A stretch of 60,819 nucleotides of DNA, the filler included, from Sphacelaria rigidula (Eukaryota), in NCBI GenBank assembly GCA_964200075.2. It is 7 parts of 7 records of this genome, joined end to end, with 100 filler letters (N's around TTAATTAATTAA, not from the genome) between each part and the next. Parts side by side here need not be neighbours in the genome. Positions count along the whole stretch, not along the records: positions 8,705 to 17,308 come from CAXNAA020010624.1; 6 more parts are not named here. The stretch is one strand, 5' to 3'. Positions 12,114-57,880 of the stretch are shown here, piece by piece; positions within the stretch are counted from its first letter, which is position 1; every line of letters begins with the position of its first letter. Below the pieces are notes generated by a model. That model saw only the letters and a list, made by a program, of their open reading frames with translations. It ran no database searches and was not told the origin of the DNA. The position numbers were made by a program, and so were the translations under genes.

Positions 12114-13539
12114 TACAGAAATTATAATTCTCCGGGTTCTTATCCCCAACGAAAAGCTCCATCCTGAATTTCGATGATCGGCTGTTTCCAGCAAAAACGA
12201 TGTCTACAGTGCTGGATCACCTTTTTATCACTGCCTAGAATGGGTTGGGTTTCCTCCTTCCATCAAGAAAAAAAAAAAAAAAAACTGCCTAGAATGTTCG
12301 TACCTGTCGTGTAGAACTATGATGTACCCACCGAAAAGGTTCAAACTTTACTGTACTGAACGTGCTTCTGTCCCTCACCTGTCCCGCGCCCCCCTGTACT
12401 TTGGGCGCTTCCCTGGCAAAACACTTGAAACTGGCGCTTCCCTGGTAGGCCAGTATGTTGACATCATGTGCATCGTGTAGACACGACACGAGCAGTACCA
12501 GAACCCCTCCGAAAAACCGGTTACACAAATAACGAATACCCACTTGCAGGTCACGTAGCAACTAAAACAGTGCAGTACTGTATTTTGCGACTATAACTGA
12601 TCGTCATCAGCTTGAGTTTCTGCAAACAAATACGCGCATGCGTTCGAGAAAAATGGAATACGTACTACCTGACGCCATGTTATCGCGCGTGTGTTGAGAC
12701 CCACAGATGTATATTACTTACGCATGTGCACATATCAAGTGAAACGCGAATGTTCAAATAACTGGGTTTCGAAAGATCACGTGCAGCGCCGTTGAGAAAA
12801 CAGGGCACCCTTGTTCTATTCCCGACAATTGAACATGAACGATCAGACCGTATCAGTGGTTCGAAAAAGTTGTCAAGTACCTGCGAGTTGACGACGGGTT
12901 TCCCAAACATGTACGGGTGTTCTGTGGATATAAAACAGCCTCCAACAACGTTGTTCGGTAGTTCAAAAGGTCAAAGCAACGTGCTCAAGCGCTCGCAGGA
13001 GTGATGCAAGCCCGGGTATATGACTTGGCGTGCCTCATCCTGCCACGTGTCCTTTTCACGGTCAAGCACAATTGGGCAGTGGAATTTGGGCTGGTGAGTT
13101 TCCAGCAGCACATGTATTCTACGTATGTGCTTTACCGGCCCTATAGCTGCTTTCGATACATACCACGGTAATGTAGAGGACGTCCTCGTACGCCTAGAAT
13201 CCCCGGGCAGTGGAGTTTGTATACGTCAGTGCATGTCAAGCATTGTCTTGGTGAATGCAGGTGTCTCGTGCTGTTCCGAGTGATGCGCAGTAAGTGCGAT
13301 TTGATTGTTTTCAGCAACGAACTTCACACGCTGCCAAATGATGCTCAGGAACCGCTTTTCGGTGTTTCGGCGATCGTGCTGTCGGCAGAGGTTGGTTCTC
13401 GGAGGAGGAACGATGCGAAGAGGAAGCTGGCGGCCGACGTGACGAGGAGAGATTTCGACCAAGGGGCTGCAGCAAGCGGTGATCGTACGGTGAAAAGGGC
13501 TACGGAGCGGAGTTCTGCTCCAAGCACGCCAGGGCGGGA

Positions 13540-15240
13540 ATGACGAACGTGAGGGACAAAAGTTGCGGCGACGAGGGCTGTCTCAAGTATCCATCGCATG
13601 GTGTAGCAGGAAGCAAAACAGCGGAGTTCTGCTCCGAGCACGCCAGGGCGGGAATGGTCAACGTGAGGAGCAAAAGTTGCGGCGAGGAGGGCTGTCTCGA
13701 GTATCCATTGGATGGTGTAGCGGCAAGCAAGAAAGCGAAGTTCTGCTCCGAGCACGCCAGGGCGGGAATATTGAATGCGTTTCAAAAGAGTTGCGGCGAG
13801 GAGGGCTGCATCAAATACCCTTCGTATGGTGTAGCGGGGAGCAAGAAAGCAGAGTTCTGCTACGAGCACGCCAGTGCGGGAATGGCCAACGTGAGGAGCA
13901 AAAGGTGCGGCGAGGAGGGCTGTGTCAAGTTTTCATCGCATGGTGTAGCGGGGAGCAAGAAAGCGGAGTTCTGCTCCGAGCACGCCAGGGCGGGAATAAT
14001 GAATGTGGGTAAAACGAGTTGCGGCAGGGAGAGCTGCATGAAACGTCCATCGTATGGTGTAGCGGGGAGCAAGAAAGCGGAGTTCTGCTCCGAGCACGCC
14101 AGGGCGGGGATGGTGAACGTGAGGAACAAGAGGTGCGGCGAGGAGGGCTGTGTCAAGTTTTCATCGCATGGTGTAGCGGGGAGCAAGAAAGCGGAGTTCT
14201 GCTCCGAGCACGCCGAGGCGGGATTGGTGAACGTGAGGAATAAGAGGTGCGGCGAGGAGGGCTGTGTCAAGCTTTCATCGTATGGTGTAGCGGGAAGCAA
14301 AAAAACGGAGTTCTGCTCCGAGCACGCCAGGGCGGGAATGGTGAACGTGAGGAGCAAGAGGTGCGGCGAGGAGGGCTGTGTCAAGTTTCCATCGTATGGT
14401 GTAGCGGGAAGCAAAAAAGTGCAGTTTTGCTTGGAGCACGCTAGGGCGGGGATGGTGAACGTGAGGAGCAAGAGGTGCGGCGAGGAAGGCTGTGTCAAGT
14501 TTCCATCGTATGGTGTGGCAGGAAGCAAGACGAGAGAGTTCTGCTTGGAGCACGCCAGGGCGGGAATGGTCAACGTGAAAGACAGAAGGTGCGGCGACGA
14601 GAGCTGTGTCAATCTTCCTTGGTATGGTGTAGCAGGAAGCAAGAAGGCGGGTTTCTGCTCCCAGCACGCCGTGGTGGGAAGTCTGGCGAAAAAACGGTGC
14701 GGCGACGAGGGCTGTCTCGAGTATCCTTCGAATGCTGTAGCGGGAGGTAAGAAGAGAACGTTCTACTCCGGGCGCGCCAGGGCGAGAATGGTGAACGTGA
14801 GATACAAAGGTTGCGGCGACGAGGGCTGTGTCAAGCATCCATCTCATGGTGTAGCGGGTTGTAAGACGGCGGAGTTCTGCTCCGAGTACGCCATGCCGGG
14901 AATGGTCCATGTGGTCAACAGGAGGAGCGGCGACGAGGACTGTCTCAAGCTTCCATCGTATGATGTGGCGGGAAGCAAGAAGAGGGAGGATTTTTCCGAC
15001 AATGCCAGGGCCGGCATGGTAGATGTGAAGACGAGGTGCTATCACGAGTCCTGCCTCAACCATCCGACATATGTTGTGGCGGGGAGCAAGGAGGCGGAGT
15101 TCTGCTCCGAGTATGCCAGGACGGTAATTGTGGGCATAAAACATGTCGAGTCCGGCAAGAAAGGATCCTCCGAGCCATTTGTTCCTAAGCGGCACAACCT
15201 TGATGAGGCACAGTGTTGCCAACAGCATACTACTGCACAC
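13540..15240 (+). repeat. Coding tandem repeat, 114-bp unit
   Basis: Units start at 13540+114n for repeats 1-11; gagttctgctccgagcacgccagggcggga recurs. Confidence 0.92.
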
Positions 15241-15807
15241 AACATAGATACAGAGCACGACGCCGCACAACTCAGCACTATAGTGGCCACCTCCAGCCGT
15301 AGCACGATGGAGGTTGGTGGAGGATTCGTTGCTGACGTACGTGGAATAAAACGCAAACGCGACGAGTGCCCGGGCTCTGGTTCATGTGCTGTTGTTGGCA
15401 CTCATCGTTGTGTGTACCCCAGTCCCAGGCGAGGTGTTACAATGCTACCGTTGCTCTCAGCACAGAAACCCTCGGGGGCTGATGGTACGGTGTCTTCAGA
15501 GGCAAAGGCAGGATCAGGAATAAAGGTGGAGCCGGCAGTCCCTTTTTCAGCACACCGCAGCACCTGGGTAAGAGAGTGTGGGGAGTATGCTACCTATTCA
15601 CGTGGTTCGAGCAGCGTAGGTGTGGGTAATAACTCCAGTAGCAGGAATAGGGGTGTGGGTACGGGATGGCTACGTGGTTCGTCGGCGATGGTGTCTGGGT
15701 GTCTCAGCGCGTCTGATACTGTGCAAGCCGAAGAGACCGAGATGAATTCGAACGTGAAGTTGGAGCCAGGAGTGTCTAGTCTTCCCCCTTGGACGTCGGA
15801 TAGGTGA
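13540..15807 (+). CDS. EsV-1-7 cysteine-rich repeat protein, 755 aa, single exon
   Basis: Uninterrupted ORF with 14 recognisable repeats plus 1 degenerate one, consensus MVNVRSKRCGEEGCVKFPSYGVAGSKKAEFCSEHARAG (C-x4-C-x16-C-x2-H). This is the EsV-1-7 repeat of phaeoviruses and brown algae. A Ser/Gly-rich tail follows. Confidence 0.9.
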   Translation: MTNVRDKSCGDEGCLKYPSHGVAGSKTAEFCSEHARAGMVNVRSKSCGEEGCLEYPLDGVAASKKAKFCSEHARAGILNAFQKSCGEEGCIKYPSYGVAGSKKAEFCYEHASAGMANVRSKRCGEEGCVKFSSHGVAGSKKAEFCSEHARAGIMNVGKTSCGRESCMKRPSYGVAGSKKAEFCSEHARAGMVNVRNKRCGEEGCVKFSSHGVAGSKKAEFCSEHAEAGLVNVRNKRCGEEGCVKLSSYGVAGSKKTEFCSEHARAGMVNVRSKRCGEEGCVKFPSYGVAGSKKVQFCLEHARAGMVNVRSKRCGEEGCVKFPSYGVAGSKTREFCLEHARAGMVNVKDRRCGDESCVNLPWYGVAGSKKAGFCSQHAVVGSLAKKRCGDEGCLEYPSNAVAGGKKRTFYSGRARARMVNVRYKGCGDEGCVKHPSHGVAGCKTAEFCSEYAMPGMVHVVNRRSGDEDCLKLPSYDVAGSKKREDFSDNARAGMVDVKTRCYHESCLNHPTYVVAGSKEAEFCSEYARTVIVGIKHVESGKKGSSEPFVPKRHNLDEAQCCQQHTTAHNIDTEHDAAQLSTIVATSSRSTMEVGGGFVADVRGIKRKRDECPGSGSCAVVGTHRCVYPSPRRGVTMLPLLSAQKPSGADGTVSSEAKAGSGIKVEPAVPFSAHRSTWVRECGEYATYSRGSSSVGVGNNSSSRNRGVGTGWLRGSSAMVSGCLSASDTVQAEETEMNSNVKLEPGVSSLPPWTSDR

Positions 15808-17308
15808 TCGATAATGCTACCCATGATGAGTTTGGCGTTTGCATTCTTTGCGGTATACGGGCGTGTGCTAGCGTGAACCATTGACACTTGAAAACGAGAA
15901 GCGACTGGTTTTGGTCGTTTTATTTTGTTGGTTAAAGGGTGTTTGTGAGGCTGTGAGGACTTCACACTTCGACATTAAGTTTCCCTAGGTTCTACTCGGA
16001 ACGTGGATGTTATAGGTACGATGCCCACATGTTGCATGAGGAGGACGAAAACAGGTGTACCGTAGCAGTCGGTCCTCCGATGAATCGTGACATCGCTGTT
16101 GGACTTTCCATCCCTACGTCAACCGTGTCTAAATTTTCTTGATGCTGTAGTTAGTATTTCCAGTCTCATGTACTAAGTACCAGGATGAAGACACGAAGAT
16201 TGAGGGTGGTCCGGTAACCCGTCGTATTTGTTTCTCTGATGCCCGCAGTAGTACCTCAACATAGTAGTACAAAAACAAAATGAATTCGTGGAGACCACAT
16301 ATGTATGAGCGTAATGAACATCAGAATACACATGTAAGCCGGAGAAACAGTATCAGGAACGGGGTCCGCCAGTGACATGCATGAACGAACTCGAAACGTT
16401 CAAGCCTGTGAAACTGGATATTTGGCAACATAGGCAACGGGGTCTCTGGTACAAGAGCGCGAAATAGTAGGGCCACAGTATGAACCCTGACTGAGCGTTG
16501 TCGGTACTGCCGTACCGACTCGTTCAGCAGTTCTCCTTGCCCACCACCGGTCACGGCCACACCCTTGCCTAAATGACAAGAAAGAGAATTACGCCTTGCT
16601 CTGGAGATCCTTCTGCAGCATAGTACGAGAACGATCTTGTTTGGGACTAGTAATTGTAGTGCCTCACCCCTAGCGAAGCTATTTCACAGTGGCGTCAACT
16701 AAGAGGTTTGAACCTACGCGTGCAGAGCACGTTGACTCATGCGTGCGGAGCACACTGACTAAACGGTTTGCGACATCGTCCGAAACAAGGAACCAAAAAA
16801 CGCTACAGCAGGTGAAACCTATCGGTCATGTGCATAGTAACTTGAGTTGAGGGGGTTGTGGGAGTCAGCGAAACGCGAAATAAGCCTCTAGTGTGCATGA
16901 TAGATCACCAGCAGGGCTAGTAGAACAACTAAGCCGCACGTATCAACCCACCTTTCACCGTCATAGTGCAAGAGGCATGGCATTCAATAAAGCAGACTGA
17001 CCTCTTGAAACGCTGTGACTCGGACTGACACTAGCAAAAGGTTACCCAACCTACAAACGCACTACCTTGTCATAGCCCACCATTTAGGAAGCGAAAGAAC
17101 AGGGTGTATTGGCCGGTCGTGCCGAAAATAAGCTCACAAGCTGAGAGGAGTTGCAAATGACATATAGTTCATTTTTTCACGTCTCAGAGCGCATGCAACG
17201 GAGAAAAGTACCAACCCCCCGGTGGAAGATATCAGAGCGAAAACAGGGTTGCCAGAAAAATGAGAACGTATTTTGAAATGAGAATTAACCGCTTCCCGGG
17301 ATTGTGTC

Positions 17309-37286: not shown

Positions 37287-40200
37287 CCCCCTCTGAACCG
37301 GTACATCAGTCGTCGTGACTTTTTCTCTCCCCCCCCCTCAAAACAATATAAGAGGGAAACCCGGTCATCCGAGCAAAAAACCCCTCCCCTCAACAGCTTG
37401 TGCACAATCTAGATAACCCATGGACGCCGGTCAAGGCAGATACACGTCATGTCAAGAAATGCCCTACGAAACCCATGCCCCTCAAAGTAGCGTGGGTGGC
37501 TTAACCCAAAATGCGCTTAAATGCATCATTCAACACCTGAACGTATCCGGCGCTAGCATAAGAGTACACACAAAAACGTACCTGCTTGTCACCTTCCAAG
37601 TTCATAAAAAAACGTCTGCGCCTCGTAAACAGGCTGATCAAGAGAGGCTTCGTCAGACTATCAGCATGCTGCCATCCTGAACCTACATGCACAACGCTGA
37701 TCTTTCCCGTCCCCACCAGCTCTCGAATGAAGTGATATCTTACGTCGATTTGCTTACTCCTTTCGGAACTGAGGAGATTTTCGGCCAGAGCTTTTTCTCC
37801 CTCGTTGTCCTCGTACGAAACAAAACCTTGGTCCTCCCCGCATCCCGACACAGTCTGAGGTCGCAGGAACGTCAACAATGCCTTCACAAACAGCCCCTCC
37901 TTTGCCCCCTCGATCATTGCGACATACTCTGTCTCCGTAGTTGACAAAGTCACACAGTGTTGCGTGCGGCTCGTTGCCGACACTACAACACCACCGTACA
38001 TTATGGCTACCCCTCAGACCGAACGCCAATCCGTTTCCTTTTTGGCGTAGCATGCATCGCAGTAAACTGAATGTCTATCATGTCCTTTCTTGAACGTAAA
38101 GTCCAAACTCCTTCGTCTCGTGAAGATACGTTAGCACTTTCACCACAGCTTCGAAGTGCCTCTCGCACGAATCATGCGACTGGCGAGCGAGCGCTCGTAC
38201 CGCATTTGCGATGTCGGGTCTGGTAACTGTTGCCAGCCACATCAGCCCCCCCACTGCGTTACGGTATTGGCGATTCACCCTTGTGTCTTCGCCCGTTGTC
38301 GGCCCCAACTATATAGAAACAGAGGGAGAAATTTCCGAGTACCCCCTCACCTCAAAACGCTTAAGGAGCGTGTCCGCGAACGTGGTTTGCGTCGCGGACA
38401 GCGTGCCTCTATCCCAATCTCTATCCACTGCGCACTCCATGTACCAGGTGGCCTCTCCGAGATTGTTCGTGGGAGATGTTTTGTTGAGTATTTTGCCCAC
38501 GTCTCCCACGTTTTCCAGAGAACCACTGATAGGAATGTCGTCCACATGGACACCTAAAATCACATGCACGTCCTCTGCATCCTCAATCCTGAAAACACAT
38601 GGGTCAGCCTCACACTGCACCATCCCGACATCCTCCGGTAAAGTTTGGCACAGAAGACGAGACCACTGCCTCCCCGCTTGCTTGATCCCGTAAATAGATT
38701 TCTCCAGCTTCAAGGTCATGTCTGTTAAAACGGAGCAACCTTCAGGCAACCTCATGTACACGTCAGTGTCCATCTCTGCTTGAACGAAAGCCTGTGTCAC
38801 GTCAAAGTGATACAGCGGCCACTCTTCTTGAACTACCACTGCCATGACCAGTTTGATGGAGGCCATGGAGGGCGTTGCCGCGAAAGTACAGAAATAGTCG
38901 ACTGCAAAACGTTGTCCGAATCCTCTTGCTACCAACCTTGCCTTTGCCTTCGTTATAGTACCATCTGCGTCAGATTTCCAACTAAAAACCTACTTCGCTG
39001 AAATCACGTTTACTCCTTCCGGTACAGGGCCAGTCGAAAATGTTCCTGCCTTTTCATGATCCCCTACTTCGGACTGCATTGCGCCTATTCATGCCTTTCA
39101 AATTTGCTATGTCATCCATACTGGTGGGTGCTGCCTCTATTTCGCTTACGTGTTGGTCAACCGGTGAACGCAAACCGAATTCAGACTGCCCTACTCTGTT
39201 TTCCTCAGCAAAACAAAAAGTCTTTTTCGGTTAACTCGTGTTGAGTCGAAACGATTGCGTCTTGCCCAGCCACCTGTCCTGCTGCCGCGGTGATCAGCTC
39301 CATGGTTGAGTATTTGTCCTCGGCCATTCCCGCCAGCGCTATCTCCGCTTCCTTTTTGCTCTCCTCCGCTCTGCCAGCCACTAGCGTTTCGCCTAGTGTG
39401 TGTGCCGACCCCATGGCCTCGCGCGTTTGGCGCCTCGTACGCCCCGTCCTTGGTGTTGGTAACCAGTCGGCCTACGCAAGACGGCGTTGCTCGGTCCTCC
39501 GAAGTTGAGGAGCGTCGCCGCCCCCCTCGCCGTCTTTCGAGGGACCCGTGGAAGAGAGTGAAATTGCGGGCGATGAGGGAGTGTCCGATGCCGATGTGAG
39601 CGTCGGCATAGGTGTCGGCATCTGCGCTGGTGTCGGCGTAGGCGTTGATGTTCGCGTTGATGATGATGATGATGATTCCGGCTCACCTCACCCCCTCCGT
39701 TGACAAAATCTGGAACGGGAAAGTCTGGTATCAACCCGCCTTCCCCCCCCCTCGCCGGGATGGTGAAGGCACTTCGCCCCCTCCACTACTGACGGGCATC
39801 TGCAGTGCTGCTCCGCCCCTCCCACCAACGGAACTCGGCGGGGAGGACGGTGCGCTTGAGGAACCGCTGGACGAAGTGTCCACTGTCGACCTTTCCATCC
39901 TTTCCTCACTCACTCCCTGGCCTTGATCGATGCTGGAATTCTTCAGCTCGCCCGGCGTCTGGATCGCTTGTTGTAGTGTGCGGGGGGGGGAGGCAGCGGA
40001 CGTAGGTGCCCATGTTACATGTTATGTGTTGTCACGGTAATAGTTCCTCGTACTGTCAAAAGTCGCATCGCGTCACGTGGGTAGCCTGGGGCTGGGCTCA
40101 AGTACCAGTATTTTTCCGCCTTCGGCTGCAATTTGTTTGTCCGCTTCCTCCAACAAAACCCAGGCTTCAAGAACGGAATGAGATCATCGTCTGGTGGTGA

Positions 40201-55541: not shown

Positions 55542-55913
55542 AATTTTACGACCACCTCCAGATTCGCCGCATTCCTGAACCTGCGTGAAGATGTGGGGTT
55601 CGATCTGTACGCTGGTCGATGGGATTCAGAACTGGTTGTTATGGGGCCAATCCCCTGCCAAAATGAGATTTGCAAAAGGGCACAATCCTCTTTGATGATA
55701 AGGGGGGCCCTAACGCTTACCCTAACCCTAACCCTTACCACAACCGAACGCGTACTGAGAATTCTCGGGCGAAGAGGGGTGCAGACGGAGCCCCAGGCAA
55801 TGTGTGCACGTTGGCAGGCCTCGAATCGGTGCCTGTGCCCGTGACGAAGCCAATTTGGACAAGAACGCCTCCTGCGCACGCTATTGTACTGTAGGAAGCC
55901 AAGGTTTGTAGCT

Positions 55914-56400
55914 CATGCAGGACAGACTTGCGTAGCTCGTGTAGCTCTCATAGCTCACCCAGGGCGAATATGAGCTGTTGAGCTACGGGTTGGTGGCTCA
56001 CCTAAGGCAAATATGGGTAGCTCGTGCAGCTATCATAGCTCACCCAGGGCGAATATGAGCTGATGAGCTACGGGTTGGTGGCTCACTCAGGGCAAATATG
56101 CATACTTCATGCAGCTCTCATAGTCCACCAAGGGCGAATATGAGCTGATGAGCTACGAGTTGGTAGCTCACCTAGGGCAAACATGCGTAGCTCATGTAGC
56201 TCTTACAGCTCACCCAGCAAAATTATGTGTAGCTCGCACAGCTCTTCTAGCTTACCCAGTGGAAACTTACACGGGTGAGCCAAACTCGATAACTCACCCA
56301 AGGTAAACATGTGTAACTCATACAGCTCTTAAAGCTCACCCAGAGAAAACATGAGTGGATGAGCTACGCCCGGTAGATCACCCTGGGAACAAATACTCAT
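55914..56400. repeat. Degenerate AGCT-rich tandem array (TE subterminal repeats)
   Basis: Recurrent catagctcacccagggcgaatatgagctgatgagctacgggttgg units of ~85-90 bp. Confidence 0.8.
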
Positions 56401-57277
56401 AGCGCACTCACGTCATGTGCCCAGCTAAGCCGATGTCGCTCATGATGAAACGTTCTTGTTCGAATGGACGTCGTAACGTATCATGAGGTTGTGGTTTTCT
56501 GCCTTGGCTTTCGTGGTGAGAAAAAAAGAGCTCAACACGAATCCTCGTTAGCCTGGTCGAATGGTTCAAAATATGAATGAGATTCGGTGTGTTTTAACAC
56601 TTGGACGGCGGTGCGGGTAGTCCATCTGGAGCATGCATACATTTTTCAAGTGAATTTTGATGCCGATTCAGCGCATGACATACCCTCGCGGTCAAGGGGA
56701 TCATATTCAACCAATTCATTGCTTATGACCGCTTGGCCGCGAGGGTACGAATCCATCTGGTCATGCATACTTTTTTTCGAGTGAAAGTGAAGCCGATTCA
56801 ACAGATGACCTGTGCTCGCCGTTGAAATGGTTGACCCTTTGACCGCGAGTGTGGGTGATCTGTATAATCAGCGTAATTATCACCAGTATTTTTTGGGTGT
56901 GGATGATGCCGATGTAGCTGATCCGCCTACCCTCGCGGTCAAAGGGTTGAGCAAATCAAATATTGCATGTGTGTTCACTTCCTCCACATCAACCGCTTGT
57001 TGTGGGGGATCCAGATCCATGCGGCATCATTTCCGACTGGAGCGTCGCTAGAGCTGCAGCCCCCCGGCGGTCGCCATTTGTAGGGCGAGTTGTGTGCGCG
57101 TGTGGTTGTGTGTGGGCGTAGTAGCTACGAAGGGGATGGCCTCTGATGCAGTCATTGTTGATGTTTACAAATGGCAACTCCATCACCGCACAAAACGGAA
57201 CACAGGTGCGTACACATGTAACCGTTTTCACGTATCAACGTGCATGAGCATCGGAACAGAAACAAATCCAAAATCGG

Positions 57278-57880
57278 CGTAGCTCTCGTAGCTATTTAGC
57301 TCAATCAGGGCAAACATCCACAGCTCATGTAGCTCTCCCAGCTTACCCAGGGCGAACATGCGCAGCTCATGTAGCTCTCATAGCTGATCCGGGACAAACG
57401 GGCGTAGCTCATGCAGCTCTCATAGCCCACGCACGGCGGATATGCGCTGATGAGCTAAGGGTTGGTGGCTCACCTCGGACAAACATACGTAGCTCATGTG
57501 GCTCTCATAGCCCACCAAGGGCGAGTATGAGCTGATGAGCTACGGGTTGGTAGCTCCACCTATGGCAAACATGCGTTGCTCGTCTAGCGTTCATAGCTCA
57601 CTCACGGCGAAAATGAGCTGATGAGCTGCGAGTTGGTAGCTCACCTATTAATAGCGCAAACATGCGTAGCTCATGCAGCTGTCAGAGCTCACCCAGGGCG
57701 AATATTTTTTGATGAGCTACGGGTTGGGAGCTCACCCATGGTAAACATGCGCAGCTCATGTTGCTCTTATAGCTCATCCAGGAAAACATGCGTAGCTCAC
57801 GTAGCTCTCATAGCTCAGTAGGGAGCTGCGCTGAAAAAGATCTAGCTCGAGCTTCAGGGAGCTGATGTATCCGACGTGTG
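57278..57880. mobile_element. AGCT-rich array ending in the CACACGTCGGA-family terminus
   Basis: 57780-57880 is the reverse complement of 10721-10820 and ends TCCGACGTGTG. Confidence 0.75.

Follow-up and report, generated by a model that had tools for sequence, protein, structure and literature searches.

EsV-1-7 zinc-repeat arrays of a brown alga as candidate nuclear DNA-binding regulators with SUMO-type tails and nuclease-fused viral relatives

The EsV-1-7 array described here is best explained as part of a nuclear gene of the brown alga Sphacelaria rigidula that belongs to a family of a few hundred paralogs. The family's products may be arrays that bind DNA, are related to the arrays of viral nucleases and act as SUMO-dependent regulators resembling KRAB zinc-finger proteins; for this reading as a whole we estimate a probability of about 0.45. 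The gene lies in a window (the whole stretch of DNA that was analysed) of 60,819 nucleotides, filler included. New in this analysis are the count of the family, the positive selection on one position of the repeat unit (column 9, three residues after the second cysteine, Cys2), the tail motifs and the turnover of the arrays. In the accessible parts of the literature, the EsV-1-7 domain family (PF19114) is known in brown algae (10.1101/2024.02.19.579948; 10.64898/2026.04.27.720984) and its role as zinc-finger transcription factors has already been hypothesised; those parts did not report position-specific selection, a psi-K-x-E/basic tail, nuclease-fused relatives or array turnover. Likewise, the accessible text on brown algae with KRAB or SUMO did not report the tail motifs or the selected site, and the accessible literature on Vsr, zinc fingers, giant viruses and homing endonucleases held no report of the nuclease link.

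The stop-free frame extends from 13483 to 15807 on the forward strand, and its first ATG is conserved in all nine aligned paralogous 5' regions (Table 1). The encoded protein matched PF19114 over 15 stretches (Pfam; E 1e-170, 553.7 bits against a cut-off of 25), and TRF found a period of 114 with 13 copies at 13506-14981. An earlier, sequence-only reading had described ten consecutive strict C-x4-C-x16-C-x2-H units, each of 38 residues. Exactly ten are present in frame (the first cysteine, Cys1, lies at 13564 in unit 1 and at 14590 in unit 10), and the ten hexamers following Cys2 are those it had listed; the length holds for nine units, the tenth measuring 36 residues to the next Cys1. The array is also longer than the ten intact units, with one decayed unit before them and four degenerate units after. 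The decayed unit lacks the start codon that is present in four more distant paralogs; an in-frame stop interrupts it at 13480-13482, and relative to paralogs it shows a one-base gap. The closest paralog, L041, shares both the gap and the stop, and past this shared 5' decay the frame is open for 774 codons in the window gene and 814 in L041. Only eight residues precede the first unit, leaving no room for the IMM-specific N-terminal domain; the protein is a member of the EsV-1-7 family and not IMM. There were no RNA records of the window gene among the matches listed. Near 16340-16390 the contigs of three small runs end and those of the large run continue, a weak hint of expression.

Table 1. 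Features of the window gene (positions along the whole window).
Feature	Positions	Strand	Basis
Upstream region (promoter / 5' leader)	12200-13429	+	Common to ~12 paralogs, 66-91% identity
Decayed first unit, probably now 5' untranslated	13430-13539	+	Comparison with paralogs
Single-exon coding sequence, EsV-1-7 array plus tail, 755 aa	13540-15807	+	ORF, Pfam match
Ten intact C-x4-C-x16-C-x2-H units (nine of 38 aa, tenth of 36 aa)	13564-14697	+	
Column 9 (Cys2+3) codons, one per unit, 13588-13590 to 14614-14616	13588-14616	+	
Four degenerate units, each without at least one Cys/His ligand, kept in frame	14698-15150	+	
Ser/Gly/Ala-rich tail, no Pfam match	15151-15807	+	pN/pS 0.92
Basic cluster KRKR, putative nuclear localisation signal	15349-15360	+	Consensus; cluster in 74 of 87 tails
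First psi-K-x-E motif, IKVE, candidate SUMO acceptor	15520-15531	+	Conserved over 87 tails
Second psi-K-x-E motif, VKLE, near C-terminus, candidate SUMO acceptor	15754-15765	+	Conserved over 87 tails
Probable 3' untranslated region	15808-16370	+	Paralog homology to about 16250

Comparison of the window units revealed 16 of 38 columns to be invariant (columns 27-38 counted on nine units). Entropy was highest at column 36 (2.06 bits), followed by columns 9 (1.85), 7 (1.57), and 32 and 35 (1.45 each), with columns 20, 21 and 12 also variable (1.30-1.36 bits). Over 1,255 units, the entropy of non-ligand columns ranged from 0.3 to 3.2 bits, which supports the fixed scaffold with position-specific variation that had been proposed; the four ligand columns are invariant by the selection of units with the strict motif. 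The variation had been placed just after Cys2 and in the basic residues before Cys1, but what varies most there is individual positions, and neither the hexamer in its entirety nor the basic residues as a group. Genome-wide, the P-S-Y of that hexamer is conserved, as is the Lys located two residues ahead of Cys1.

Structure models (pTM 0.23 and 0.52) gave the units a small beta structure with short strands and no recognition helix. The TALE-like superhelix envisaged earlier was not predicted, the low pTM being compatible with one forming on DNA. In two independent models, five units in all showed isolated beta-bridges, at columns 38 and 9 and never at one without the other, which suggests, the partner being inferred, that the two variable segments of a unit face each other. 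No match to a solved fold was found for the 8-unit model, which is of low confidence, and this does not demonstrate a new fold; the fold list of the confident model was filled by its nuclease part. The units carry a net charge of about +3 each and, judging from the C,C,C,H pattern, very probably bind zinc.

Selection was assessed on 1,251 units from 109 loci, and column 9 had dN/dS above 1 in every test (1.3-2.3). In pairwise comparisons the overall value was 0.5-0.6 and that of column 9 was 1.8-1.9; under context-specific mutation rates column 9 gave 1.4-1.7 in four pair sets, and 1.53 with pairs chosen blind to it. The likelihood site test placed it at 1.85 (p 8e-7), the sole column of 38 significantly above 1, with most columns significantly below 1 and the scaffold at 0.2-0.6. 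Values over three disjoint thirds of the loci were 1.30, 1.68 and 2.17. On a tree built without column 9 the estimate was 2.25, but it fell to 1.29 (p 0.03) when the tree was drawn from the unit's first half; unit-level gene conversion, which lies outside these models, can inflate such values. Transversions at the first two codon positions of column 9 occurred at 2.1-2.2 times the fourfold-site rate, and CpG decay is thus not the explanation; a CpG artefact was rejected on this basis and on that of the context-specific rates.

The two linker positions, columns 35 and 36, were near 1 or slightly above depending on the method, with values of 1.1-1.9 against the pooled synonymous rate and only 0.6-1.3 against their own; column 24 was likewise near 1 on its own rate. 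A multi-residue code is therefore unsupported, and we rejected it, columns 3, 7 and 38 being below 1 and columns 35 and 36 about 1 in the stricter tests. The sequence-only reading had set dN/dS near 1 everywhere against its own proposal; we found purifying selection on most columns and a value above 1 at one. Of the few variable positions per unit that it described, only column 9 is robustly under positive selection, and the variable patch is narrower than it had stated. Units 1-10 of the window gene have Y,Y,Y,F,R,F,L,F,F,L at column 9, that is Tyr, Phe or Leu in nine of ten; Arg, Gln and His, which are typical of base-reading, are mostly absent from it there.

A codon pattern for E-F-C-x-x-H-A had 2,649 exact matches in the genome versus 25 for the reversed control, and at 10.5 matches per sampled locus these at least 2,649 unit motifs correspond to roughly 250 genes. 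A PF19114 search gave 4,575 candidates, and all 150 that were scored exceeded the cut-off. Arrays reach 37 units, the units being ~82% identical within one gene, and the column-9 strings of arrays with at least six units were all different (100/100). Close paralogs are not collinear and differ in unit number (10 vs 13, 21 vs 11, 8 vs 22), numbers that may be mis-assembled, since the assembly is fragmented (27,214 contigs). All units were in one frame at 99 of 109 sampled loci, a sample biased to high-scoring loci, and the other ten had split arrays. Five of six public gene models checked begin inside the array and omit 7-17 units. Carriage of the gene by a mobile element was rejected, as the flanks shared among paralogs (about 12200-16250) carry no terminal repeats and do not break off sharply at a common point; without a sharp common end upstream there is no sign of a mobile-element boundary, and an apparent boundary at 12285 was a 44-bp insertion private to the window copy. 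A provirus was also rejected: the contig flanks are non-coding host-type repeats, and one query found no nuclease domain in the S. rigidula genome.

Apart from its motifs the tail evolves near-neutrally (pN/pS 0.92 over 26 disjoint paralog pairs; 1.8 between the window gene and L041, on few changes). It had no Pfam match, hence neither a KRAB nor a FiNZ domain, and no catalytic domain; at the N-terminus of the protein, too, no domain precedes the array. The basic cluster, presumably of nuclear-localisation-signal type (KRKR), was found in 74 of 87 tails versus 28 shuffled, its columns being 64-79% conserved. The psi-K-x-E motif, the SUMO consensus, occurred in 76 of 87 tails within their final 45 residues versus 1.6 in shuffles. 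Over these tails the K and E of IKVE are 92% and 94% conserved and the motif ranks near the bottom in non-synonymous rate among 202 tail columns; those of VKLE are 90% and 85% conserved, its K having the lowest rate of all. The x of VKLE spans nine residues, and as x and the synonymous sites vary while K and E hold, the motif is one of protein and a DNA or RNA element was rejected. Tails of other non-nuclease homologs had psi-K-x-E in 21 of 38 cases (3.3 shuffled), and nuclease tails in 7 of 41 (8.5 shuffled). Homologs with a long tail from other named brown algae had it in only three of nine cases, and it is thus not universal. A SUMO-like gene is present in the genome, and the conservation of psi-K-x-E in a disordered region marks the protein as a candidate SUMO substrate; SUMOylation of the tail lysines is fairly likely.

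A Vsr/EDxHD-like nuclease motif (PD...E-x-D-E-x-Q-H...R-x-N-P-D) was observed at the C-terminus of 42 of 110 homologs, giant-virus proteins included, and all three giant-virus loci examined end in this nuclease-like domain; its motifs are absent from the tail of the window protein. The domain model had a pLDDT of 90.6, catalytic activity being predicted only. Its best matches among 48,161 chains were Vsr (1cw0; Z 8.6, rmsd 4.5, 135 aligned) and I-Bth0305I (3r3p; Z 8.4, rmsd 3.3, 94 aligned), Z values only modestly above the tool's reported background. No Pfam, NCBIfam or PDB sequence profile named the domain, and Foldseek against the PDB gave nothing at E 0.001 or better; the top rows of that search were mostly PD-(D/E)xK nucleases, and atlas matches at 0.85-0.90 (PvuRts1I-like, DUF559) are a lead only. 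Viral structure matches included proteins labelled endonuclease and C2H2-type.

Algal and nuclease-fused arrays vary at the same columns (entropy rank correlation 0.57, p 5e-4), with Q and R at 26% and 23% versus 24% and 23% at column 9, N, S, H and D at column 36 in both, and K37 at 74% in both. A Mariner transposase with an N-terminal EsV-1-7 domain is also described in the accessible part of a published study (PMC12477816). These nuclease and transposase fusions lend support to the nucleic-acid ligand suggested earlier, and the arrays probably bind nucleic acid. The N-terminal region of I-Bth0305I makes largely non-specific contacts, according to the accessible part of its description (PMC3239194), and the nuclease fusion thus argues for DNA binding and not for specificity. 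That specificity is set unit by unit we put at slightly less than even odds; of the per-unit code proposed earlier, neither the code nor a target could be derived.

The array-nuclease proteins of giant viruses have the same unit and, as in the alga, an N-terminal array and a C-terminal effector, whereas the algal gene has no nuclease and a disordered psi-K-x-E tail in its place. I-Bth0305I carries NUMOD motifs, not zinc repeats. The vertebrate KRAB/FiNZ genes, in the accessible part of their description (PMC10547256), similarly form hundreds of lineage-specific paralogs with tandem, largely single-exon zinc modules, positive selection, rapid gain and loss, and a short common effector part, and binding and repression of transposable elements (TEs) are demonstrated for them and proposed for the alga. 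The algal module (C-x4-C-x16-C-x2-H, 38 residues) differs in having no predicted recognition helix, a C-terminal effector of linear motifs, and one selected position instead of several, and the window protein had no C2H2 Pfam match. The likeness is one of logic, not homology. TAL effectors consist of near-identical 34-residue helical-hairpin repeats forming a superhelix, with two adjacent variable residues and a one-unit-one-base code. They share with the alga tandem units with few variable positions and a nuclear signal and effector at the C-terminus, whereas the algal units are 38-residue Cys/His modules, without helical hairpin or predicted superhelix, ~82% identical, and variable in two segments. 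In the algal unit columns 35-36 are neighbours and both variable, without being robustly above 1, the robust site being column 9. The WRKY19-type zinc finger (PF24906) also has C-x4-C...C-x2-H tandem repeats, with shorter spacing; it cross-matched some homologs weakly (P0087, E 1e-5, below cut-off) and had no match in the window protein.

In the mechanism that we propose, the recognition part would be a flexible string of 38-residue zinc modules binding DNA. Conserved Lys residues would hold the backbone, the Cys2+3 residue and its cross-strand neighbours just before Cys1 would touch bases, and unit identity and order would set the target. The effector part would be the disordered tail, which would carry a nuclear signal and recruit chromatin partners, most likely repressive, through two SUMOylated lysines. 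In giant viruses the array would serve as the N-terminal part of Vsr/EDxHD-type nucleases, and in the alga the SUMO-type tail would replace the nuclease. New specificities would arise from point change at column 9 and from unit gain, loss and reshuffling, as in KRAB zinc-finger genes, and the arrays plausibly track transposons or integrated virus DNA. The tail psi-K-x-E motifs and the viral nuclease link, both absent from the sequence-only reading, carry most of this mechanism; the virus or TE surveillance that it raised is an analogy. That selection is driven by the repression of mobile DNA is possible but rather doubtful. The most far-reaching version is unlikely when taken jointly: that brown algae, a lineage without DNA, H3K9 and H3K27 methylation, independently built a KRAB-zinc-finger-like genome defence from giant-virus homing-type nuclease arrays, with a SUMO-acceptor tail in place of the nuclease and a column-9-centred unit-by-unit code for hundreds of DNA targets, guiding repressive chromatin to transposons and integrated viruses. 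IMM, the sole characterised member, is a developmental regulator, and a link to mobile DNA is not reported for it in the accessible sources.

The arrays could instead be nuclear DNA-binding regulators without a per-unit code, a polyvalent, basic, low-specificity tether to DNA or chromatin in which columns 9, 35 and 36 tune affinity or drift. This is fairly unlikely. The charge of the units, the values near 1 of columns 35, 36 and 24 on their own rate, the non-specific contacts of I-Bth0305I (PMC3239194), and the four degenerate units retained in frame are consistent with it, as are the many units gained or lost between close paralogs, which a strict code would tolerate badly; however, column 9 exceeds 1 in every test instead of lying at 1, and algal and nuclease-fused arrays have restricted residue sets in common at columns 9 and 36. 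Reading of single-stranded RNA or DNA, or of protein epitopes by innate-immune or anti-viral receptors, in place of duplex DNA is quite unlikely. A CCCH-type ligand set, an aromatic column 9 in the window gene and L041, and the missing fold match of the low-confidence model to a known DNA-binding finger would suit it. Positive selection and array shuffling, typical of immune receptors, also fit, whereas the fusion of homologs to a transposase and to a nuclease fold of DNA type, tail motifs that suggest the nucleus, and the strongly basic units speak against it.

We consider it very unlikely that the family is a mostly functionless, self-amplifying coding minisatellite or a decaying virus-derived family, with the window copy perhaps a pre-pseudogene. 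Constraint on most columns, the predominance of single-frame arrays in the biased sample, the constrained K and E among variable synonymous sites, the long open frames past the shared decay and the absence of mobile-element ends in the shared flanks all argue against decay, which would account for the tail pN/pS, the decayed first and degenerate last units, the split arrays and the weak constraint on the scaffold. PRDM9-like or centromere/drive-related binders, whose arrays erode or chase host sites instead of foreign DNA, would explain minisatellite-like turnover together with a selected contact position; hundreds of dispersed paralogs in place of one fast locus, a tail without catalytic domain and the failure of one query to find the nuclease domain in the genome make this extremely unlikely.

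The EsV-1-7 family is reported, in the accessible part of the literature, as the largest brown-algal orthogroup, including a developmental regulator, and transposon silencing in brown algae is described as largely unknown in that of PMC12477816. Both the function of the family and TE silencing become experimentally addressable through the residue under selection, the pair of conserved tail lysines and the relatives fused to a nuclease. If DNA is indeed read unit by unit, C2H2 fingers and TALEs would be joined by a third, independent system of modular DNA reading, one that offers a new programmable DNA-binding module and whose naturally occurring variants number in the thousands within a single genome. 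By analogy, the family may be the seaweed counterpart of the animal zinc-finger repressors that silence transposons.

The EsV-1-7 array in the window's gene is a real feature that belongs to a known family, and its protein scores 553.7 bits against PF19114 (EsV-1-7 cysteine-rich motif) in Pfam. Columns were numbered with Cys1 as 1, Cys2 as 6, Cys3 as 23, His as 26 and the last residue as 38. The sequence-only reading had described ten intact units of 38 residues; ten strict C-x4-C-x16-C-x2-H units are indeed present, the tenth being 36 residues long, and the hexamers it listed after Cys2 agree exactly with the sequence of the ten units. One decayed unit precedes the array and four ligand-deficient units follow it, beyond which lies a tail of ~220 residues that found no match in a Pfam search. 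In five of nine aligned copies, which form the sub-clade of the window's gene, the start codon ahead of the first unit is missing and that unit has decayed to differing extents. A gap and a stop in the decayed unit are common to the window's gene and its closest paralog, L041, and long open frames persist in both from the next ATG despite the decay; every unit of the array supplies an ATG.

The flanks of the gene are non-coding and contain small fold-back repeats. Roughly a dozen paralogs are homologous to these flanks over ~1.2 kb on the upstream side and 0.45 kb on the downstream side, and the homology has no sharp ends, which fits an origin of these copies by ordinary duplication. Contigs from three small runs (two studies) cover the tail and end near 16340-16390, and a large run extends further; these ends are a weak hint of a transcript, the runs not being recorded as RNA. 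The assembly (244 Mb) comprises 27,214 contigs, and the N spacers every 8.7 kb mark the window as concatenated ~8.6-kb contigs rather than a single locus.

Features of the window and of the viral locus L150, with their positions
Feature	Position	Strand	Observation
Contig of the gene (G000:C10624)	8705-17308		neighbours beyond this range unproven
Stop-free frame of the gene	13483-15807	+	first ATG 13540
44-bp insertion	12240-12297		private to this copy; short sequence with poly(A) at its end, between the two copies of a 13-bp direct repeat; resembles a retro-insertion that was truncated and duplicated its target site
Fold-back element, ~300 bp	11816-12116		MITE-like; arms 77-84% complementary; copies at several other loci
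GAGCT-rich repeat family (85-bp / 42-bp)	10780-11020, 55900-57820		present close to several further EsV-1-7 loci (L052, L054)
Copia-type reverse transcriptase remnant	37504-38989	-	RVT_2, E 5e-35; followed by an RNase-H-like frame with no match in a Pfam search
Exon, presumably of a 40S ribosomal protein S15-like gene	7158-7370	+	neighbouring contig
Methyltransferase-like frames, by eye from motifs	L150:1654-2874	-	one side of viral array-nuclease gene
	L150:4990-6189	+	other side of the same gene

A PF19114 search of the genome returned 4,575 candidates, and all 150 that were scored passed. A codon pattern for E-F-C-x-x-H-A had 2,649 exact genome matches versus 25 for a control. We fetched 108 further loci from the best family and best DNA matches, a choice that biases the sample toward intact, similar copies. 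All 109 loci contained units (1,462 in total), with 1 to 37 in the longest frame per locus and arrays split over frames at ten loci. At 10.5 pattern matches per sampled locus, the genome holds, as a rough figure, about 250 such genes, within the 95-335 family members given for other brown algae in the text available of 10.1101/2024.02.19.579948. The closest homologs with a name are labelled as from Sphacelaria rigidula, a brown alga, and six of these public proteins are identical to frame ends at sampled loci; of these six gene models, five (L041, L045, L061, L066 and L148) begin at an ATG within the array and lose 7-17 units. Because public models start in this way, array length in the family is probably under-reported.

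Variation was analyzed in the 1,255 units followed by the next unit at 38 residues (207 excluded), a set in which the ligand columns are invariant by construction. Entropy was highest at columns 36 (3.21 bits), 9 (3.20), 3 (2.93), 35 (2.62), 38 (2.57) and 29 (2.55), and P10, S11, Y/F12, G13, G16, F22, M31 and V34 were conserved. Across all columns, pairwise dN/dS along a minimum spanning tree came to 0.6, with values of 1.8-1.9 for column 9, 1.7-1.9 for column 36 and 1.3-1.4 for column 35; with fourfold-site, CpG-split mutation rates, these columns gave 1.4-1.7, 1.3-1.4 and 1.1-1.2, respectively. When each site was given its own synonymous rate in a likelihood test (1,251 distinct units), column 9 was the sole column above 1 (1.85, p 8e-7), columns 24, 35 and 36 were about 1, and the remainder were below 1. 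With the loci divided into disjoint thirds, column 9 stood at 1.30, 1.68 and 2.17 (p 0.04, 0.03 and 5e-6); it stood at 2.25 when omitted from the tree and, more weakly, at 1.29 (p 0.03) on a half-unit tree, and its transversions ran at twice the fourfold rate. Columns 35 and 36 gave 0.6-1.3 across the thirds and alternative-tree tests. The tests are our own implementations applied to short recombining units, which leaves the effect size uncertain and the location consistent. The proposed fixed scaffold with few variable positions thus holds in that most columns lie below 1 and column 9 is selected, but the variable set is narrower than claimed, columns 35 and 36 being relaxed or weakly selected.

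Arrays also differ in the number and order of their units, with the proviso that unit counts are open to distortion by short-read assembly. The tails of the window's gene and L041 differ by 5-9%, and their 10 and 13 units are not collinear. Unit number differed in all 13 close pairs, in some widely, and the column-9 strings of 100 arrays with at least six units were all different. Within a gene, units differ at ~20-22 of 114 bases at any distance, and units of different genes at 32, a sign of continual exchange within arrays.

An eight-unit model of the window's array was of low confidence (pLDDT 61, pTM 0.23), and a fold search with it found no match. The model of P0087, a homologous protein, was based on 37 aligned proteins of greater diversity and reached pLDDT 90.6 and pTM 0.52. 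Both models predict short strands (columns 12-14, 22 and 31-33), and neither predicts a recognition helix. Isolated bridges at columns 38 and 9, always paired, occur in five units of the models, from which we infer that these columns may pair across the base of the Cys-x4-Cys knuckle; both variable segments would then lie on one patch.

The last 190 residues have a pN/pS of 0.92 in 26 disjoint paralog pairs. Complete tails numbered 87, the tails at the other 22 of the 109 loci being short or cut. Of these 87, 76 carry [VILM]-K-x-E within the last 45 residues versus 1.6 in shuffles, and 66 carry a pair of such motifs within the final 150; a basic cluster is seen in 74 versus 28 in shuffles. As paralogous tails are not independent, the rate test outweighs these counts: across 202 tail columns, the two lowest non-synonymous rates are those of one K and one E in the motifs (0.03 and 0.04; median 0.30), while synonymous change goes on at the motifs and x takes nine residues. 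The psi-K-x-E motif is the SUMO acceptor consensus, which often occurs where transcription factors have repressive regions. The genome contains a SUMO-like gene, and we take KRKR in the tail to be a candidate nuclear signal. Other homolog tails that lack the nuclease show psi-K-x-E enrichment as well (21 of 38 versus 3.3 expected; many unnamed, some maybe close kin), and nuclease tails do not (7 of 41 versus 8.5 expected). Of nine long-tailed homologs named as other brown algae, three have the motif.

Those nuclease tails come from a set of 110 homologs of similar length, drawn from the best 8,000 candidates scored. A C-terminal domain marked by the motifs PD, E-x-D-E-x-Q-H and R-x-N-P-D occurs in 42 of them and in all three loci from giant-virus genome bins. 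No profile library searched names it; its predicted fold is closest to those of Vsr (Z 8.6) and I-Bth0305I, a homing endonuclease (Z 8.4), and among predicted viral structures it is also found in proteins whose labels read C2H2-type. At L150, the viral array-nuclease gene and its methyltransferase-like neighbours are a possible restriction-modification-like arrangement. Arrays in P0059, P0068, P0078 and P0080 are listed with helicase-associated, retrotransposon gag, rhomboid and primase zinc finger Pfam families, either real fusions or gene-model artefacts.

In 115 nuclease-fused units, Q makes up 24% and R 23% of column 9, and S makes up 34%, N 24%, H 10% and D 8% of column 36, close to the algal sets, and K37 is at 74% in both. 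An Ectocarpus Mariner transposase is described with an EsV-1-7 domain at its N-terminus (PMC12477816). Taken together, the nuclease-ended homologs, matching residue sets and transposase fusion suggest that the ligand of the arrays is most likely DNA. The specificity of I-Bth0305I is reported to come mostly from its nuclease domains (PMC3239194), which urges caution on this argument, and an array acting as a low-specificity DNA tether is a tentative but real contender. Somewhat less probable is a reader of RNA or protein epitopes, a reading kept alive by the aromatic column 9 in the window's gene. That EsV-1-7 genes are a largely functionless repeat family seems improbable, and a PRDM9-like case very remote.

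The best reading, to which we give a probability of roughly 0.45, is that the array would read DNA and the tail would serve as a SUMO-dependent effector, a system like KRAB zinc-finger proteins in its way of working and unrelated to them by descent. The idea of modular recognition is therefore partly supported and sharpened to one selected position, column 9, with two that are relaxed or weakly selected. Published accounts cover the family and its expansion, its affinity to viruses and the hypothesis that members are zinc-finger transcription factors (10.1101/2024.02.19.579948, 10.64898/2026.04.27.720984, PMC7457493, PMC12993054, PMC12629598, 10.64898/2026.06.18.732790), and also an animal parallel to the proposed system (PMC10547256) and further giant-virus mobile elements with zinc fingers (10.1101/299784). 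The selected position, nuclease link and tail motifs were not found in the literature searched; Macaisne et al. 2017 and preprint supplements, outside its scope, may mention some. Our results put forward specific residues and a plausible origin for a gene family that is the largest of those still unexplained in brown algae, and both the function of the EsV-1-7 family and brown-algal transposon silencing become directly testable.
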